Assembly (NCBI GenBank): GCA_036558325.1
Contig: DATBFU010000062.1
Location: 55,048-119,047 of the forward strand
DNA length: 64,000 nucleotides
Reading direction: 5' to 3'
Source of the DNA: Thermoanaerobaculia bacterium
Lineage (GTDB): Bacteria; Acidobacteriota; Thermoanaerobaculia; UBA5066; Gp7-AA6
This document shows, in pieces, positions 2,609-23,320 of this stretch (its first letter is position 1; every line of letters begins with the position of its first letter). Both the position numbers and the translations under genes were made by a program. The notes beneath the pieces were generated by a model. It saw only the letters and a program-made list of their open reading frames with translations. It was not told the origin of the DNA and searched no databases.

Positions 2609-4060
2609 CTAGGGCTTCGCCACCGCGTCGCGCGCCTTCTTGCGCGCTTCGGCGTCCTCGGTGATGAGCTTGTAAGCGATGTAGTACTTGTAGATGTTCG
2701 AAACGTAAGTCACCGTCTCGCGGCCGATCTTCTCGGACGCCACGATCTCGACATTGTTGAACCAGACGTTGGGATCGAGGCCCCGCTTCGCCGCCTCCTT
2801 CCGGAGGCTCGCGATCCGCGCGGGGCCCGCGTTGTAGGACGCGAAGGCGAAGAGGCCCTTGTTCAGCTTGTCCATGGGCTCGTTGGCGTAGTAGCGGTCG
2901 ATCATGAACCGCATGTACTTGACGCCGGCATGGATGTTGGGCTCGATCTGCGTGATATCTCCGACCTTGAGGTCCTTGCCCGTCGCCGGCATCACCTGCA
3001 TGACCCCGACCGCGCCGACCTGGCTCTTCGCGTTCTGATTGAGCTGGGACTCCTGATAGCCCTGAGCGGCCATCAGCAGGTAATCCATGTCGTACTGGTC
3101 CGAGTACTTGTGGAAGAAGTCGACGGTCTGCTGAAACTTCTTGCGCTCGGTGTCGGACGCGGCGTTCTTCACGAACCGGGTGTTCTTCAGATACTTCTGG
3201 AAGAGCATGTTGTACGTGGCCGAGCCCGCCGGATACTTGGCGATGAAGGCGTCGAGCTCCGCTTTCAACTTCGGGCTGTTCTTCCGGATCGCCCAGCCGA
3301 TGTCCGCGTCCTTGCGTAACACGGCCTCCGGGTGGAGGACGAGCTTCGGATAGACGCCGGCCCAGAATTTCGCGACGAAGTCCTCGACGACGACGTAATG
3401 GACGAGACCGGCGTTCGTCATCTCGAGAAGGTCCTCGTCCTCGAGGTCCGCCGGCGCGAAGCGCAGCTTGACGGGCGCCTTGCCGCGCTTCCCGAGTTCG
3501 GCGTTCAGCGCCTGGAGGCTCTCGTGGTAGATCGACTTCTCGCGGACGAAGACCTCCTTGCCGGAAAGGTCGTCCGCGCTCGCGATCGCCTCCGCGTCCG
3601 GGCCCGAGACGACGATCTCGGAAACGTTCTTCAACACCGGACTGGAGAAATCGACCACCTTCAGGCGTTCCGGCGTGATGGTCAGGTTCCCGGTGGCGAT
3701 GTCGCCGCGGCCGGAGAGCAGGGCGTCCGCCAGGTCCGCGCGCCGCGTCGGAATGAAGGCCACGTGGATCTTGAGGTTGCCGGTCTTGTACTTCTTGTTG
3801 ATCTCGTCCTCGAACATCTTGAAGGCTTCGTAGGTGATTCCCCGCGGGGCGCCCTTGTCGATGAAGTAGTTCGTCTTGTTGTAGACGACGAGGACGCGGA
3901 CGATTCGCCGCTTGCGCAGCGCGTCGAAATCCCCGCCGACGTCCTTCATCACCCGCACCGGCATCTCGTGGACGTCTTTTTTGTCGGTCTGCGCCGCCCC
4001 GGCGGCGGGCGCCGCGATGAAGGCGAGGGCCAGGCCGATCCGCGCCATGCGGCGCAACAT
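2609..4060 (-). CDS. MltF-like membrane-bound lytic murein transglycosylase (solute-binding-like domain + SLT domain)
   Basis: ATG at 4060 gives signal peptide MLRRMARIGLALAFIAAPAAGAAQ. An N-terminal SBP_bac_3-like domain is followed by a C-terminal SLT motif GYQESQL...VGAVGVMQVMPATG...SYNAGP. Confidence 0.85.
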   Translation of the reverse strand: MLRRMARIGLALAFIAAPAAGAAQTDKKDVHEMPVRVMKDVGGDFDALRKRRIVRVLVVYNKTNYFIDKGAPRGITYEAFKMFEDEINKKYKTGNLKIHVAFIPTRRADLADALLSGRGDIATGNLTITPERLKVVDFSSPVLKNVSEIVVSGPDAEAIASADDLSGKEVFVREKSIYHESLQALNAELGKRGKAPVKLRFAPADLEDEDLLEMTNAGLVHYVVVEDFVAKFWAGVYPKLVLHPEAVLRKDADIGWAIRKNSPKLKAELDAFIAKYPAGSATYNMLFQKYLKNTRFVKNAASDTERKKFQQTVDFFHKYSDQYDMDYLLMAAQGYQESQLNQNAKSQVGAVGVMQVMPATGKDLKVGDITQIEPNIHAGVKYMRFMIDRYYANEPMDKLNKGLFAFASYNAGPARIASLRKEAAKRGLDPNVWFNNVEIVASEKIGRETVTYVSNIYKYYIAYKLITEDAEARKKARDAVAKP

Positions 4061-4095
4061 GAGCTCTTTCAAGGATTGCTCTCCGGGAACGGATT

Positions 4096-5046
4096 CTAAC
4101 CGCGCCGGCGCGCGAGCCCCGCGATCTCGCGCCGCTTGGCCCACAGACGGCGGCGATTCCTCCAGAGCCATCCGAATGCCGGAAGCGAGGAGCGCTCGAC
4201 GGTGAGGCAGGCCCCGAGGACGACGACGTCGCGCGCGAGCGTCGGGACGAGCGTCGCGAAGAAGCCGCCCGCGGTCTGGTTGTTGATCCGCAGCAGAAAG
4301 CGGTTCTTGACCGAATGGTAATTGGCGAGCGGCGACATGTCGCGCCGGCGGGAAGGCAGGTTCGTGCGCCGATGCCAGGCGACGGCGTCGGGCACGTAGA
4401 GACACCTCCAACCGAGGCGGGCAAGCCGCAGGGCGAGGTCCGCGTCCTCGCGGTAGAGAAAGAAGTCCGCGTCGAAGTAGCCGGTCGAGATCTTCACGGA
4501 CTCGAGGGCCTCGCGCCGATAGAAGCCCGCCGCGCCCGTCGTGCCGGCGATCTCCTCCTCGATCAGGTATCGCCCCGCCCCCTCCCGCTCCGAGCCGCGG
4601 TCGAAGTGCCGGCCCGACGCCCGAAAGACGATTCCGGTCGAGTCGAGCCGCGTCGTCGCCGCGAGCGCGGCTCCCTCCGCCCGGTAGATCCTCCCGGACG
4701 CCGAGCCGACGTCCGGCCGCTCGTCGAGACGCGCCGCCAGCCGCGCCGCGAAGTCGGGAGCCAGTCGGCAGTCAGGGTTCAACGCGAGCACGTAACGGCC
4801 CTTCGAAGCCTCGATGCCGGCGTTCATCGCCGCGGAGAAGCCGACGTTTCCGGGCAGCGCGATCACGCGGACGTCCGGCGCCAGCCGCCGGGCGATTTCG
4901 ATGGAGCCATCGCGCGAGGCGCCGTCCACGACGATCGTCTCGGTCGAAACGCCGCGCTGCGCGGACGCGCTCGGGAGCGACGCCGGAAGATCCGCCGCCG
5001 AATCGTGCGTCACGAGGACGATCGAGACGTCGACGATCGCCGTCAT
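4096..5046 (-). CDS. glycosyltransferase family 2
   Basis: 316 aa. The N-terminus VSIVLVTHDSAADL, then VVDGASRDGS and a DxD-like EDADL, fit the GT-A fold signature. Its ATG overlaps the stop of the upstream gene (ATGA at 5043-5046). Confidence 0.85.
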   Translation of the reverse strand: MTAIVDVSIVLVTHDSAADLPASLPSASAQRGVSTETIVVDGASRDGSIEIARRLAPDVRVIALPGNVGFSAAMNAGIEASKGRYVLALNPDCRLAPDFAARLAARLDERPDVGSASGRIYRAEGAALAATTRLDSTGIVFRASGRHFDRGSEREGAGRYLIEEEIAGTTGAAGFYRREALESVKISTGYFDADFFLYREDADLALRLARLGWRCLYVPDAVAWHRRTNLPSRRRDMSPLANYHSVKNRFLLRINNQTAGGFFATLVPTLARDVVVLGACLTVERSSLPAFGWLWRNRRRLWAKRREIAGLARRRG

Positions 5047-6983: not shown

Positions 6984-7060
6984 GTCGGGAAGATGGGAGG
7001 GGCGGTTCAAGGGATGGCGATGCGCGAAGCCTGTCGGCGCGATATAACTCGCGCGCGACG

Positions 7061-8329
7061 ATGCTACCACGCGATTTTCTCCGCGAGAACGCGGAACGCC
7101 TGCTCGCCGACTATCCGGAGCGCTACGCCGGATCGGGTCTCGAGCGCTTCGCCGAGGTCGACCGCCGGCGACGCGACGCGGTCACGCGACTCGAGGAGAA
7201 GCGCCGCCGGCGCAACGAGCTGACCACCGTGAAGGGCAAGCCGTCGCCCGAGGCGCTCGCGGAAATGAAGGGATTGAAGGAGGAGATCCGCGCGCTCGAG
7301 GAGCAGGCCGAGAAGGACGACGCCGAGCTCGCGGACGTCGAAACGCGGATCCCGAATGCGCCGCACCCGAGCGTGCCCCGCGGCAAGGACGAGAGCGCCA
7401 ATCGCGTCGAGCGCTCCGTCGGAGAGCCGCCGCGCTTCGACTTCGAGCCCAAGGCGCACTGGGACCTCGGCCCGGCCCTTGGCATCCTCGACTTCGAGCG
7501 CGGCGCGAAGCTCGCCGGCGCGCGGTTCACGGTGCTCCGAGGCGCCGGGGCGAGGCTCTCCCGGGCGCTTACCGCGTTCATGCTGGATCTCCAGACGCGC
7601 GAGCACGGCTACGAAGAGATCTTCCCGCCGGCTCTGACCAACGCGGCGTGCCTCTTCGGGACGACGCAGCTCCCCAAGTTCGAGGACGACCTGTTTAAGA
7701 CGCGCGAGGGCTACTACCTCATCTCGACGGCGGAGGTACCGCTGACGAATCTCCACCGCGAGGAGACGCTGACGGCGGGCGCGCTTCCCCTCCGCTACAC
7801 CGCCGGGACGTCGTGCTTCCGCGCCGAAGCGGGCGCCGCCGGGCGCGACACGCGCGGCATGATCCGCCAGCACCAGTTCGAGAAGGTCGAGATCGTGCAG
7901 ATCGTGCGGCCGGAGGGCTCCGACGCCGCGCTCGAGAAGCTGACGGGCCACGCCGAGGAGGTGCTGCGGCGGCTCGAGCTCCCTTACCGCGTCGTCTCTC
8001 TCTGCACGGGCGATCTCGGTTTTGGCGCGGCGAAGACGTACGACCTCGAGGTGTGGCTCCCCGGCCAGAACGCCTACCGCGAGATCTCCTCCTGCTCGAC
8101 GTTAGGCGATTTCCAGGCGCGCCGGGCCCAGATCCGATTCCGCCGCGCGGAGGGCGAGAAGCCCGAGTTCGTCCACACGCTCAACGGATCGGCCCTCGCG
8201 ATCGGGCGGACCATGGTCGCGATCCTCGAGAACTTCCAGCGCGCCGACGGCTCCGTCGCGATCCCGAAGGCGCTGCAGCCGTACTTCGGAGGCAACGAGA
8301 TCGGAGCCCGCAGCGACGAAGCCGGCTAG
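7061..8329 (+). CDS. serS: seryl-tRNA synthetase
   Basis: 422 aa. The N-terminal [14 protein letters not shown] leads into a coiled-coil arm. The class II core includes [28 protein letters not shown] and [18 protein letters not shown]. Confidence 0.95.
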
Positions 8330-17293: not shown

Positions 17294-17330
17294 GAGCTCG
17301 GGATCCCTCGCGATCGCTCGGGATGACAGC
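17294..17330. repeat. REP-like intergenic element, copy A (AGCTCGGGATCCCTCG ... CTCGGGATGACAGC)
   Basis: It shares a 16-nt block and a 14-nt block with the element at 22363-22402. It lies between the kinase stop and tRNA-Ser(GCU). Confidence 0.55.
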
Positions 17331-17364
17331 TCAAGTGAGGGAGGCGTAGCCGTAACAGAGTTGT

Positions 17365-17458
17365 TGGCGGAGAGGACGGGATTCGAACCCGTGATAGAGG
17401 TTTAGGCCCCTATGGCGGTTTAGCAAACCGCTGGTTTCAGCCACTCACCCACCTCTCC
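17365..17458 (-). tRNA. tRNA-Ser (anticodon GCU)
   Basis: The reverse complement is GGAGAGGTGGGTGAGTGGCTGAAACCAGCGGTTTGCTAAACCGCCATAGGGGCCTAAACCTCTATCACGGGTTCGAATCCCGTCCTCTCCGCCA. It has a 7-bp acceptor stem (GGAGAGG/CCTCTCC), an anticodon arm GCGGT-TTGCTAA-ACCGC, a long variable arm, a T arm ACGGG-TTCGAAT-CCCGT and an encoded CCA. Confidence 0.92.
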
Positions 17459-17679
17459 GCGAGTGGTCAGGTCGCCGATGTTAGTGGATCTCTTCCGAGT
17501 TGGAAACCAGCAGGAGCGCGTGCGCCACCAGATCTGACTTCACGGGTTCGCGCCAAAGCGTCGTCGGCCGCGAATACGGCCGAGGGCGCGAGACAACGCC
17601 GGCCTCCGGGCCGGCGGTTATCCCGTCCTCTCCGCCAAATCCCTCGACCGCGCGCGGCCACGCGGTACCATCCCCGCGC

Positions 17680-22288: not shown

Positions 22289-22362
22289 GAGTCCGTCCGG
22301 CTCTCAGGCTGTAATCTCGAAATCGGAAGGCTTTGAGGCAGCGGCGGCGCCGCCGGCGAGGA

Positions 22363-22402
22363 AGCTCGGGATCCCTCGTCGAAGACTCCTCGGGATGACA
22401 GC
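22363..22402. repeat. REP-like intergenic element, copy B
   Basis: AGCTCGGGATCCCTCG-N10-CTCGGGATGACAGC has the same two blocks as copy A. It is followed by a CCCTCT...AGAGGG hairpin (about 22425-22450) and lies upstream of the tRNA-Ser(UGA) array. Confidence 0.55.
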
Positions 22403-22467
22403 CGATAGGAAGCCCCTCAACCCGACCCTCTCCCCTCACGGGAAGAGGGGGCTCTCACCGAGTCGTG

Positions 22468-22776
22468 TCGTCCAAACTGAAACGCCGGAGGAGTGGCCGA
22501 GCGGTTTGCATCGAGGCCCGGCGACAGCCGGGCCGACAAGCGGCGGGTCCGCCCGCCACTTACGCGGCAGTCCGAAGGCTGCCGCCTCGCCGGAACGGTC
22601 TCACGGAGCCTCTCGTCTAAACTGAGACAACGGAGGAGTGGCCGAGCGGTTTGTACCGAGGCCCGGCGACAGCCGGGCCGACAAGCGGCGGGTCCGCCCG
22701 CCGCTTACGCGGCAGTCCGAAGGCTGCCGCCTCGCCGGAACGGTCTCACGGAGCCTCTCGTCTAAACTGAGACAAC
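22468..22776 (+). repeat. two 145-bp tandem units (22468-22612, 22613-22757) plus a third leader; each is leader + first 21 nt of tRNA-Ser(UGA) + about 105 nt forming three GC-rich hairpins (tRNA-derived structured element / candidate ncRNA)
   Basis: GGAGGAGTGGCCGAGCGGTTT starts at 22487, 22632 and 22777 (exact 145-nt period). The units differ at only a few positions. In unit 2 the hairpins are 22660-22679 (8 bp, GACA loop), 22683-22706 (10 bp, TCCG loop) and 22709-22730 (9 bp, CGAA loop). The units have no T arm and no acceptor 3' strand. Confidence 0.85.
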
Positions 22777-22866
22777 GGAGGAGTGGCCGAGCGGTTTAAG
22801 GCGGCAGTCTTGAAAACTGCTGTGCTGGTGACAGCACCGAAGGTTCGAATCCTTCCTCCTCCGCCA
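22777..22866 (+). tRNA. tRNA-Ser (anticodon UGA)
   Basis: The sequence is GGAGGAGTGGCCGAGCGGTTTAAGGCGGCAGTCTTGAAAACTGCTGTGCTGGTGACAGCACCGAAGGTTCGAATCCTTCCTCCTCCGCCA. It has an acceptor stem GGAGGAG/CTCCTCC, an anticodon arm GCAGT-CTTGAAA-ACTGC, a long variable arm, a T arm GAAGG-TTCGAAT-CCTTC and an encoded CCA. Confidence 0.93.
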
Positions 22867-22888
22867 CTCGGACCGAGGGTTCCTCCGC

Positions 22889-23320
22889 TCAGACTCGTCG
22901 AGGCCGACGTTTCTTCCGCCGCGCGCGGACGACGGCCCCGGAGGCGGGTGCCCCGCATCCAGCCGCCGAGAGCACGCGGCGAAGGCTCGTGAGGAGTCTT
23001 CGCGGGTCGATCGGCTTCGCCACCATCGCCCGGGCCTGAGCCAGCTCCGTGTCCGTCCAACCGGTCATGAGAACGAGAGGAACCTTCGAGAGGCTCGGGT
23101 TATCGCGATGACGCTCGAGAAACTCCCATCCGGTGACGCCGGGCATCATCAGATCGAGGAGGATGACACAGGGCTTTCGCCGGCCGCGCAGCCGTCGAAG
23201 CGCGCTCGTTCCGTTCGATTCCCGCCAGGTCTTGAACCCATTCTCCCGAAGCATGCCCGCCACGGCGGTTCGGGTGAACGGGTCGTCCTCCACCACCAGA
23301 ATCGCGTGCTCGTGGGACAT
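22889..23320 (-). CDS. single-domain response regulator (CheY-like receiver) with basic C-terminal tail
   Basis: 143 aa. ILVVEDDP, the phospho-acceptor context VILLDLMMPG, LVLMTGW and VAKPID are present. The tail is RARRKKRRPRRV. No adjacent histidine kinase is present. Confidence 0.85.
   Translation of the reverse strand: MSHEHAILVVEDDPFTRTAVAGMLRENGFKTWRESNGTSALRRLRGRRKPCVILLDLMMPGVTGWEFLERHRDNPSLSKVPLVLMTGWTDTELAQARAMVAKPIDPRRLLTSLRRVLSAAGCGAPASGAVVRARRKKRRPRRV

Follow-up and report, generated by a model that had tools for sequence, protein, structure and literature searches.

A probable RtT-like tandem repeat of broken tRNA-Ser(UGA) copies on the 5' side of the tRNA gene in a Thermoanaerobaculia bacterium

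Introduction

The tyrT/RtT repeats of Escherichia coli have been known since the late 1970s, and they are the closest described counterpart of a tandem array that is located upstream of the tRNA-Ser(UGA) gene of a Thermoanaerobaculia bacterium (Acidobacteriota). This array is contained in a 64,000-nucleotide stretch of contig DATBFU010000062.1 (assembly GCA_036558325.1, positions 55,048 to 119,047 of the forward strand), which is termed the window; all coordinates are those of the window, and the features described are located on its plus strand unless otherwise stated. The array is composed of partial copies of the tRNA gene, each of which is interrupted by a hairpin module. It is best read as a new form of RtT-like repeat, which is located on the 5' side of the gene, is split in the D-loop, and is derived from a serine tRNA of an acidobacterium.

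In E. coli K-12, a 178-bp sequence that is repeated 3.1 times behind tyrV and one unit located between tyrT and tyrV represent RtT (RF00391), with scores of 133-137 bits for four units. The RtT unit consists of CTTCGAccAAGGTTCGA, which is the 5' half of the T arm of tRNA-Tyr, a 66-nt hairpin insert, and AATCCTTCCCCCACCACCA, which is the last 19 nt of this tRNA including CCA. The unit of the K-12 locus (L093, NC_000913.3:1285500-1288500) also holds GGGGAAGGAT, a complement of the 3' fragment of tRNA-Tyr, with which it is paired in the Rfam consensus. The RtT insert is detected in 4666 of 5426 complete E. coli genomes in 1-9 copies (median, 2) and is not detected in the other 760 (14%). RtT is dispensable and variable, because its copy number varies among these genomes and the insert is absent from some of them. 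The rtT RNA is a processed product of the tyrT operon, for which a role in the stringent or stress response has been proposed but is unclear (Bosl and Kersten 1991 as cited in PMC3318445; bioRxiv 10.1101/2024.07.17.603846).

Direct repeats of part of a tRNA gene beside the intact gene are also known as att scars of tyrosine integrases and as integrase-less elements of the cis-mobilizable (CIME) type. The usual att scar contains the 3' part of the tRNA gene only, is located kilobases away from the gene across an island, and is accompanied by an integrase. Displaced tRNA fragments, in which the alleles of fragment and gene can differ, are covered by the Islander concept (PMC4383910). A search of the literature found no earlier description of arrays of 5' tRNA-Ser fragments.

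Results

Tandem array upstream of the tRNA-Ser(UGA) gene

Within the window, there are exactly three occurrences of the 21-mer GGAGGAGTGGCCGAGCGGTTT, starting at 22487, 22632 and 22777. The number of matches expected by shuffling is 0.01, and none of 100 shuffles attains three. Tandem Repeats Finder (TRF) detects one array at 22453-22797, with a period of 145 nt, 2.4 copies, 94% matches and no indels, and a separate repeat search of the window gives the same result. The repeated 55 nt extends from position -34 to position +21 of the tRNA gene, as determined by TRF and by comparison of the upstream regions, and a 19-nt leader, TCGTCYAAACTGARAC.., is present ahead of all three copies of the 21-mer. 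The spacing of exactly 145 nt and the common leader had been described in an earlier note on this DNA, which was made from the letters alone, and both are reproduced here.

The third copy is the only one that continues as a canonical tRNA, as the earlier note had also claimed. The functional tRNA-Ser(UGA) gene is located at 22777-22866, where ARAGORN identifies tRNA-Ser(tga) and Rfam RF00005 matches with 61.1 bits. It is the only one of the three copies that either search calls a tRNA, and neither 145-bp unit is accepted as a cloverleaf. The check by ARAGORN and Rfam that the note had proposed is thus positive for the tRNA gene and negative for the units. The Rfam searches were done at the gathering threshold and at E<=10 on the window (cmscan at E<=10 over 22300-22950) and at the gathering threshold on 14 proteobacterial loci. 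On the two units, no family is detected at the curated threshold, and the matches at E<=10 are just chance-level ones of 13-18 bits. A weak match to sX4 merely reflects the tRNA-Ser that is contained in the sX4 model.

Anatomy and folding of the 145-bp units

Unit 1 is located at 22468-22612 and unit 2 at 22613-22757. The two units have the same anatomy, in which the leader is followed by tRNA nucleotides 1-21 (acceptor 5' strand and 5' part of the D arm; 22487-22507 in unit 1 and 22632-22652 in unit 2), a hairpin module, a degenerate copy of tRNA nucleotides 24-59, and a tail. The module is about 53 nt long, contains two hairpins, and is placed in the D-loop of the tRNA copy. Folding, nhmmer search and alignment place it at 22515-22561 in unit 1 (hairpin 1 at 22515-22534, a GACAA linker, and hairpin 2 at 22538-22561) and at 22660-22706 in unit 2.

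The sequence after the module aligns to tRNA nucleotides 24-59, including a degenerate variable arm. Hairpin 3 (22564-22585 in unit 1 and 22709-22730 in unit 2) aligns to nucleotides 24-44 and represents the degenerate D-stem 3' strand and anticodon arm, in which the anticodon loop has shrunk to CGAA and the stem has been lengthened and perfected to 9 bp. It has GCGGCAGTC in common with the tRNA at 22802-22810. The small hairpin GCCGGAACGGT (22589-22599 in unit 1 and 22734-22744 in unit 2) is a degenerate variable arm by alignment; it fits the CCGGAGACGG variable-arm allele of the tRNAs of relatives, not the arm of the adjacent tRNA, with alignment scores for this region of 29 against the allele of the relative L082 and 22 against the tRNA of the window. 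A T arm and an acceptor 3' strand are absent from the units. Each unit is therefore a pseudo-tRNA-Ser that is interrupted in the D-loop and truncated ahead of the T arm. The units share with ordinary tRNA pseudogenes and tandem tRNA arrays their derivation from the neighbouring tRNA gene and the loss of function. They are unlike ordinary pseudogenes in that the first 40 nt at the 5' end still match the live gene without change, whereas the remainder has either degenerated or been replaced; moreover, a foreign hairpin module is present and the T arm is lacking.

The hairpins of unit 2 refold exactly at 22660-22679, 22683-22706 and 22709-22730. These hairpins, the anticodon-stem sequence shared by the last of them, and the lack of the T arm and of the acceptor 3' strand all agree with the description in the earlier note. 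The few differences between the units noted there amount to seven, at 22473, 22481, 22484, 22485, 22509, 22511 and 22558. The changes at 22509 and 22511 convert the short stem CGGU/ACCG to CGGU/AUCG and thereby produce the G-U pair that the note had mentioned. In unit 1, hairpin 2 contains a C.A mismatch owing to the difference at 22558.

A 164-nt unit has a minimum free energy of -85.3 kcal/mol, with z = -4.2 against dinucleotide shuffles, and the folding of the whole 431-nt region gives z = -6.1. This strong fold would be expected of a functional structured RNA, either an RtT-like small RNA (sRNA) or a cis-acting leader, which is released from or acts on the pre-tRNA-Ser transcript. Such an RNA could act by competition of its acceptor 5' strand for the tRNA 3' strand, or it could be a processed external-transcribed-spacer RNA. 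The E. coli rtT RNA, which arises from an analogous repeat, is a real processed transcript (Bosl and Kersten 1991 as cited in PMC3318445; bioRxiv 10.1101/2024.07.17.603846). We regard a functional RNA as an unlikely explanation, because a stem-breaking substitution is present in unit 1, the units stay below the threshold for every Rfam family, and E. coli RtT itself is lacking in 14% of the genomes. Further evidence on this explanation is given below.

The 145-bp units contain no open reading frame of substance and are flanked by genes for an SDR protein and a response regulator. The SDR protein has no record in an exact-sequence look-up. A GC-rich hairpin at 22426-22451, which follows the SDR gene, is a probable terminator and represents the upstream limit of the tRNA locus; a similar hairpin is present in the contig L090 of a relative. 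Coding of a repeated peptide is rejected, because the periods of 145 nt in the window and 131-160 nt elsewhere are not multiples of 3. A small ribozyme, a riboswitch or a group I intron is likewise rejected as the nature of the insert, because no Rfam family matches and because the inserts lack the necessary length and vary too much.

The -10-like box and transcription

The sequence CTAAACTG is located 10-17 nt upstream of +1 of the tRNA and is kept in most syntenic relatives, with the variant TACACT in L077-80. It contains TAAACT, which probably represents a -10 box. The TAAACT hexamers are located at 22618-22623 and 22763-22768. The equivalent hexamer of unit 1, at 22473-22478, is CAAACT in this strain, owing to a T to C change, and TAAACT in L001 and L003. 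A simple sigma-70 scan finds no full promoter at the locus. Co-transcription of the units with the tRNA is plausible, because each unit bears the conserved -10-like TAAACT. The units would probably be transcribed from their own -10 boxes or by read-through.

The presence of this box in every unit is a further point in favour of a functional RNA. It is also what would be expected if the array were an adaptive duplication of a promoter, in which three -10 boxes feed one tRNA gene and thereby raise the supply of tRNA-Ser(UGA), the hairpins being incidental. The box is at the right distance from +1 in each unit, and the repeat begins at -34. This explanation is nevertheless very improbable, because highly stable GC hairpins of 8 and 10 bp, which are expected to hinder read-through, follow each promoter, this strain has a mutation in the -10 box of unit 1, no full sigma-70 promoter is found in the simple scan, and most relatives lack the units.

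Comparison of the array with RtT

In bacteria, tRNA-Tyr and tRNA-Ser both belong to class II, a link that may be real or may reflect ascertainment. Both RtT and the array of the window are tandem repeats that adjoin a class II tRNA gene and whose units each contain part of that tRNA; the partial tRNA copy is split in a loop by a GC-rich hairpin block of 50-70 nt, and the copy number varies among strains. Co-transcription with the tRNA, which is described for RtT in PMC3318445 and bioRxiv 10.1101/2024.07.17.603846, is plausible for the units of the window. The two repeats differ in that RtT is located 3' of the tRNA gene, is split in the T-loop and ends with CCA, whereas the units of the window, which are located on the 5' side, have their split in the D-loop, include the leader and the -10 box, and have no 3' end. 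Sequence similarity is absent, since RF00391 gives no match on 22300-22950 even at E<=10 (cmscan).

Presence and absence of the units in relatives

Homologues of the adjacent response regulator are found at 77-88% identity, one of which is assigned to Thermoanaerobaculia by NCBI, and the contigs of relatives keep the gene order response regulator / tRNA-Ser(UGA) / SDR / halogenase-like / FG-GAP. In the syntenic Thermoanaerobaculia contigs L075, L077-81, L085-87 and L090, the intergenic region is about 200-230 nt long and contains no 5' unit, as compared with 600 nt in the window. Among the contigs that encode an identical response regulator (P0006), L082, L085, L086 and L087 have no 5' unit, and L083 has one homologous unit, in which hairpin 1 is broken. 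Only a remnant, consisting of hairpin 3 and the tail, is left in L092. The units are thus largely not conserved in this lineage, most relatives being without them, and conservation in relatives, which the earlier note had proposed as a check for an sRNA, fails. Window-type units are represented by few sequences with decay in the covariation check. The other candidate of the note, decaying pseudo-tRNAs with an insertion, agrees well with the alignment to nucleotides 24-59, the stem-breaking changes (22558, L083) and the patchy presence. A functional RNA is disfavoured by the same facts, that is, by the absence of the units from most syntenic relatives, by their variation within the species, and by stem-breaking substitutions in L083 and L092 as well as in unit 1.

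L001 and L003, which are from the same species as the window, contain a single unit each. These single units are chimeras of unit 1 and unit 2 with different breakpoints (2111112 and 2111222) and without private changes, as expected from unequal crossing-over; assembly collapse would look alike. Two short-read contigs, L002 and L004, break off within the repeat. The end of these contigs within the repeat and the single units of L001 and L003 would be accounted for if the duplication in the window were an assembly artefact, which the earlier note had named as a ground for refutation. An artefact is, however, extremely unlikely, because the two units differ at seven positions (5% divergence) and are located between unique flanks. 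A homologous unit is present in another species (L083), and analogous arrays of 1-4 units are present in isolate genomes.

The tRNA-Ser(UGA) locus is a recombination hotspot. In L077-L081 and L092, the tRNA-Ser(UGA) cassette as a whole has the opposite orientation between unchanged flanks, the response regulator and the SDR genes, and displaced 3' fragments in these contigs carry a T-arm allele that differs from that of the resident gene (CCCTC versus CCTTC).

Hairpin module in partial copies on the 3' side

In L075, L081-L089 and L094-95, tRNA-Ser(UGA) is followed by 101-nt units, one or two per contig. In each of these units, CGAAGGTTCGAA is followed by the module and by TCCTTCCTCCTCCGCCA; the first of these is the T-arm 5' half, the module interrupts the T-loop, and the last comprises the 3' strands of the T-stem and of the acceptor stem together with CCA. 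The insert of these 3' units and the module of the window have ACCGAG...GACAAGCGGCGGGnnCGCCCGCCGCTYA in common, as determined by nhmmer and alignment. When the 64-kb window and the loci of relatives are searched with a profile of the module (nhmmer), only tRNA-Ser loci are matched, namely the 3' units of relatives and 17541-17637 of the window.

The unit at 17541-17637 is a 3' unit derived from tRNA-Ser(GCU), which is detected by nhmmer and by the repeat search. It consists of CACGGGTTCG (T-arm 5' half), the module, and ATCCCGTCCTCTCCGCCA, such that the module is located between the two halves of the T arm and is followed by the acceptor 3' strand and CCA. Of its hairpins at 17564-17583 and 17597-17616, hairpin A is nearly identical to that of the other modules and hairpin B is a different palindrome. 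The orientation of the unit is opposite to that of the tRNA-Ser(GCU) gene, which is located at 17365-17458 on the minus strand. A perfect 19-nt inverted repeat is formed by 17364-17382 and 17620-17638, and this repeat could flip the DNA between its arms.

The RtT layout is found in the 3' units of relatives, which are split in the T-loop, and in the unit at 17541-17637; in this respect, both are much closer to RtT than the 5' units of the window are. The 3' units of Thermoanaerobaculia are split at the same position of the T-loop as RtT (nucleotides 57-59). The earlier note, which mentioned neither the tyrT/RtT analogue of E. coli nor the second copy of the module at 17541-17637, had excluded the usual duplication of a tRNA 3' end by an integrase. 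This view stands for the array of the window; it does not extend to the relatives, in which the same module occurs in 3'-fragment repeats of a classic appearance. A possible remnant of a decayed 3' unit in the window is CCGAGGGTTCCTCCGC at 22873-22888, in which a T-arm 5' half seems to be fused to an acceptor 3' strand; this identification, from visual comparison with the 3' units of L082 and L085, is of low confidence.

The module shares with repetitive extragenic palindromic (REP) sequences, bacterial interspersed mosaic elements (BIMEs) and terminator hairpins its short, GC-rich, near-perfect palindromes, its intergenic location and its symmetry on both strands. In relatives, it is located where a bidirectional terminator for the tRNA gene and the convergent response-regulator gene would be, and it probably began as a terminator-like hairpin block between these genes. 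It is unlike REP in that it is not dispersed but located only beside two tRNA-Ser genes in the 64 kb and at the loci of relatives, and it is unlike an intrinsic terminator in that no U-tract follows the hairpins. A dispersed repeat of the REP or miniature inverted-repeat transposable element (MITE) type is rejected, because a 45-mer occurs only twice, the pattern of hairpin 2 occurs elsewhere at chance level, and the nhmmer matches are confined to tRNA-Ser loci within the same search space.

A REP-like palindrome, AGCTCGGGATCCCTCG..CTCGGGATGACAGC, is present in exactly two copies in the 64 kb, at 17295-17330 and 22363-22402, both of which are immediately to the left of a tRNA-Ser locus. Because this palindrome adjoins each of them, the two tRNA-Ser loci may share a larger duplicated or mobile context. 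In L095 (732-956), the module and a degenerate tRNA 3' fragment are located behind a response-regulator gene, and the tRNA gene is absent; the tRNA has left this locus in that lineage.

Analogous cassettes in other bacteria

When 185,579 species-representative genomes are scanned once for a D-loop 13-mer that recurs at a distance of 117-147 nt, 65 loci are detected, nearly all of which are from Beta- and Gammaproteobacteria (Pseudoxanthomonas, Rhodanobacter, Dyella, Dokdonella, Rudaea, Thiobacillus, Paucibacter, Roseateles, Usitatibacter and others). All but one of these loci are of the tRNA-Ser type, the exception being an unrelated 34-bp repeat (L059). ARAGORN identifies a single tRNA-Ser at the downstream copy of the 13-mer in almost all loci. 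Of the 64 tRNA-Ser-type loci, at least 52, including two tRNA-Ser(GGA) loci, have a 5' unit that consists of tRNA nucleotides 1-36, 2-4 GC hairpins, nucleotides 37-46, and a tail with the leader. These units are split in the anticodon loop; nucleotides 1-36 are identical to the live gene, and the sequence of nucleotides 37-46 tracks the local anticodon stem. The copy number in the fetched loci is 1-4. Units on the 3' side, split in the anticodon loop or the T-loop, are present in addition in L042, L049 and L068.

The unit types track taxonomy: Rhodanobacteraceae have one type, and Pseudoxanthomonas has a shorter type that is related to it. Units of the Xanthomonadales type have a conserved GAA/GAA internal loop in the first hairpin. 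This internal loop and compensatory changes in the proteobacterial hairpins argue for a functional RNA; the lack of conservation of hairpin number and sequence between unit subfamilies argues against it. In addition, G.U pairs are no more frequent than A.C pairs when the stems are predicted on both strands (8 versus 8, which are small numbers). With G.U equal to A.C, there is no excess on the sense strand and no signature of selection for a sense RNA.

Twelve tRNAs other than tRNA-Ser in the fetched loci have no extra fragments, in what is a tiny sample. A metagenome scan for window-type units yields just WD40-like coding repeats and one further betaproteobacterial locus. Chance matches of the D-loop 13-mer that are unrelated to tRNA are found in the tandem coding repeats of L070-L073 (metagenome contigs), which probably encode beta-propellers (WD40-like), and in the 34-bp repeat of L059 (an actinobacterial metagenome-assembled genome, MAG).

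Archaea contain non-canonical tRNA introns in the D-, anticodon- and T-loops, and the inserts of the units are likewise located at loop-coding positions, as in archaeal intron-containing or split tRNA genes. In the proteobacterial units, residues of the anticodon loop can extend the anticodon stem together with the insert through UUGAC/GUCAA pairing. The units are unlike archaeal intron-containing genes in that they are incomplete genes from which no tRNA product is possible, and the carrier bacteria are not known to have a splicing endonuclease. Sigma-70 or sigma-54 promoters are rejected for the proteobacterial inserts, because the TTGACA of the anticodon loop has no -10 partner. An origin from cDNA by stops of reverse transcription (junctions at nucleotides 20/21, 37, 46-48 and 58) is also rejected, because leader and spacer DNA, which mature tRNA lacks, is part of the units.

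Integrative elements as an alternative origin

The units may alternatively be regarded as scars or miniature non-autonomous derivatives (CIME-like, attP-only) of integrative elements, for which a recombinase would have crossed over in the loops of tRNA-Ser genes, with part of the gene supplied by the element and the arrays formed by repeated integration. The inserts are located in the anticodon loop and the T-loop, which Williams is said to have identified in 2002 as the classical crossover sublocations of integrases. Like att scars and CIME-type elements, the units contain tRNA fragments as direct repeats, and att scars and tRNA-Ser loci are both associated with recombination hotspots at which the alleles of fragment and gene can differ, as they do in the displaced fragments here. 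The same insert type is shared by tRNA-Ser(UGA) and tRNA-Ser(GGA) genes (L024, L032), and likewise by the UGA and GCU genes in the clade of the window. The internal leaders are unlike the promoter-proximal leader in L068, L040 and L048, and a foreign 5' half is present in L008. In L069 (a Thiobacillus MAG, oriented, about 6990-7230), an old tRNA-Ser 5' half (nucleotides 1-38) has been displaced at the anticodon loop by about 105 nt of foreign DNA with repeated TTTCCGCAAC motifs, after which comes a tRNA-Ser(UGA) of a different allele. An island that restores the 5' end of its target gene has a precedent in dusA (PMC4482086).

This origin is nonetheless rather improbable. The loci contain no integrase and no cargo, and the flanks are the conserved response regulator and SDR genes, which are syntenic in unit-free relatives. 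As in an att duplication, a segment that reaches the end of the tRNA gene is repeated (-34 to +21, three times), yet nucleotides 24-59 follow the insert, and a single crossover does not produce tRNA segments on both sides of a module. The units are also unlike att scars in that they are 100-160 bp long, gene-free, and mostly located on the 5' side. The leader and tail of the window units copy the native upstream 34 nt, which points to local duplication, and crossovers do not usually fall in the D-loop. A search of 2.9 million viral contigs gives no match to the modules, and phage and plasmid collections match the tRNA alone.

Three observations were made beside these at loci of the scan. In L005 (Pseudomonadota MAG114, about 3860-4230), the D-loop region of one 5' unit is split by a MITE-like insertion of about 215 bp with inverted-repeat-like ends, TTGAGTTTTCC...GGAAGTTTCAATAA. 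In L043 and L030 (Rudaea and Pseudoxanthomonas), the anticodon stem of the upstream unit is GCAGU/ACUGG and that of the live tRNA is CCGGU/ACCGG; unit and gene are therefore not always homogenised, and one of them has been replaced. In Dokdonella and Dyella (L012:3933-4015 and L026:4729-4811), tRNA-Ser(UGA) is followed at a distance of 2.7-3.4 kb by C4 antisense RNA (RF01695) and sRNA-Xcc1 (RF02221), which suggests the presence of prophage-like islands at the 3' side of this gene.

Discussion

The explanation that we favour, and that we consider fairly probable, is that the array is an RtT-like, recombination-generated and strain-variable tandem repeat of a broken tRNA-Ser(UGA) copy, which is probably co-transcribed with the tRNA, dispensable, and decaying. 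Recombination within the hairpin-forming arms of the tRNA gene would have joined a partial copy of the gene to a terminator-like hairpin module, whose usual place in this clade appears to be behind tRNA-Ser genes, inside partial 3' copies. The array would then have grown and shrunk by unequal crossing-over between units. If transcribed, the units would be unable to yield a tRNA and would be removed during maturation of the pre-tRNA. From the presence and absence of the units in relatives, we infer that they are neutral in this lineage, that is, dispensable and decaying, rather than a conserved functional sRNA.

Several observations weigh against this explanation. In several Proteobacteria, such as L068, L040 and L048, the array certainly belongs to the primary transcript, because the first unit directly follows a TACAAT box. 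The persistence of the unit types of Rhodanobacteraceae and Pseudoxanthomonas at the family level exceeds what is expected for neutral DNA. The hairpins of the Rhodanobacteraceae type show compensatory changes, with 92.9% of the cells paired and 21 double-change cells, and their covariation score is 0.135 as compared with 0.066 in shuffles, none of 500 shuffles being as high. The hairpin complementarity that is kept in the proteobacterial units could reflect an RNA function. The difference between the two copies in the window and the single copies in L001 and L003 could be due to collapse in short-read assembly. Finally, the locus is not associated with a recombinase, a cargo gene or a protein of a mobile element.

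More tentatively, and with some doubt, the loop-split partial-tRNA cassettes may form one class across phyla, of which RtT is the sole described member and behind which there is a dedicated mechanism or selection. A member of this class may be built from a partial copy of a class II tRNA (Ser UGA, GGA or GCU, or Tyr) with an insert in the D-, anticodon- or T-loop, which is a multi-hairpin module of 45-90 nt, and may be arranged in tandem on either side of the gene. The cause may be a recombinase or a hairpin-directed repair that acts on the stem-loops of tRNA genes, or selection for a role in pre-tRNA processing or stress signalling. If such a class exists, the units of the window are its first example of the D-loop type and of the 5' side.

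The origin and role of RtT are unexplained, and RtT has so far been treated as a curiosity of E. coli. The same architecture is found at serine tRNA genes of Acidobacteriota and of Alpha-, Beta- and Gammaproteobacteria, on both sides of the gene and in any of the three loops. These loci provide a comparative set with which the origin of the repeats, by recombination at the hairpins of tRNA genes, and their function, as processed spacer RNAs, can be tested. They also call for caution in annotation, because a 5' tRNA fragment that is accompanied by hairpins need not be an island boundary or a novel sRNA. Single-copy tRNA-Ser genes are thereby marked as unusually plastic, with inversions, allele swaps and changes in copy number.

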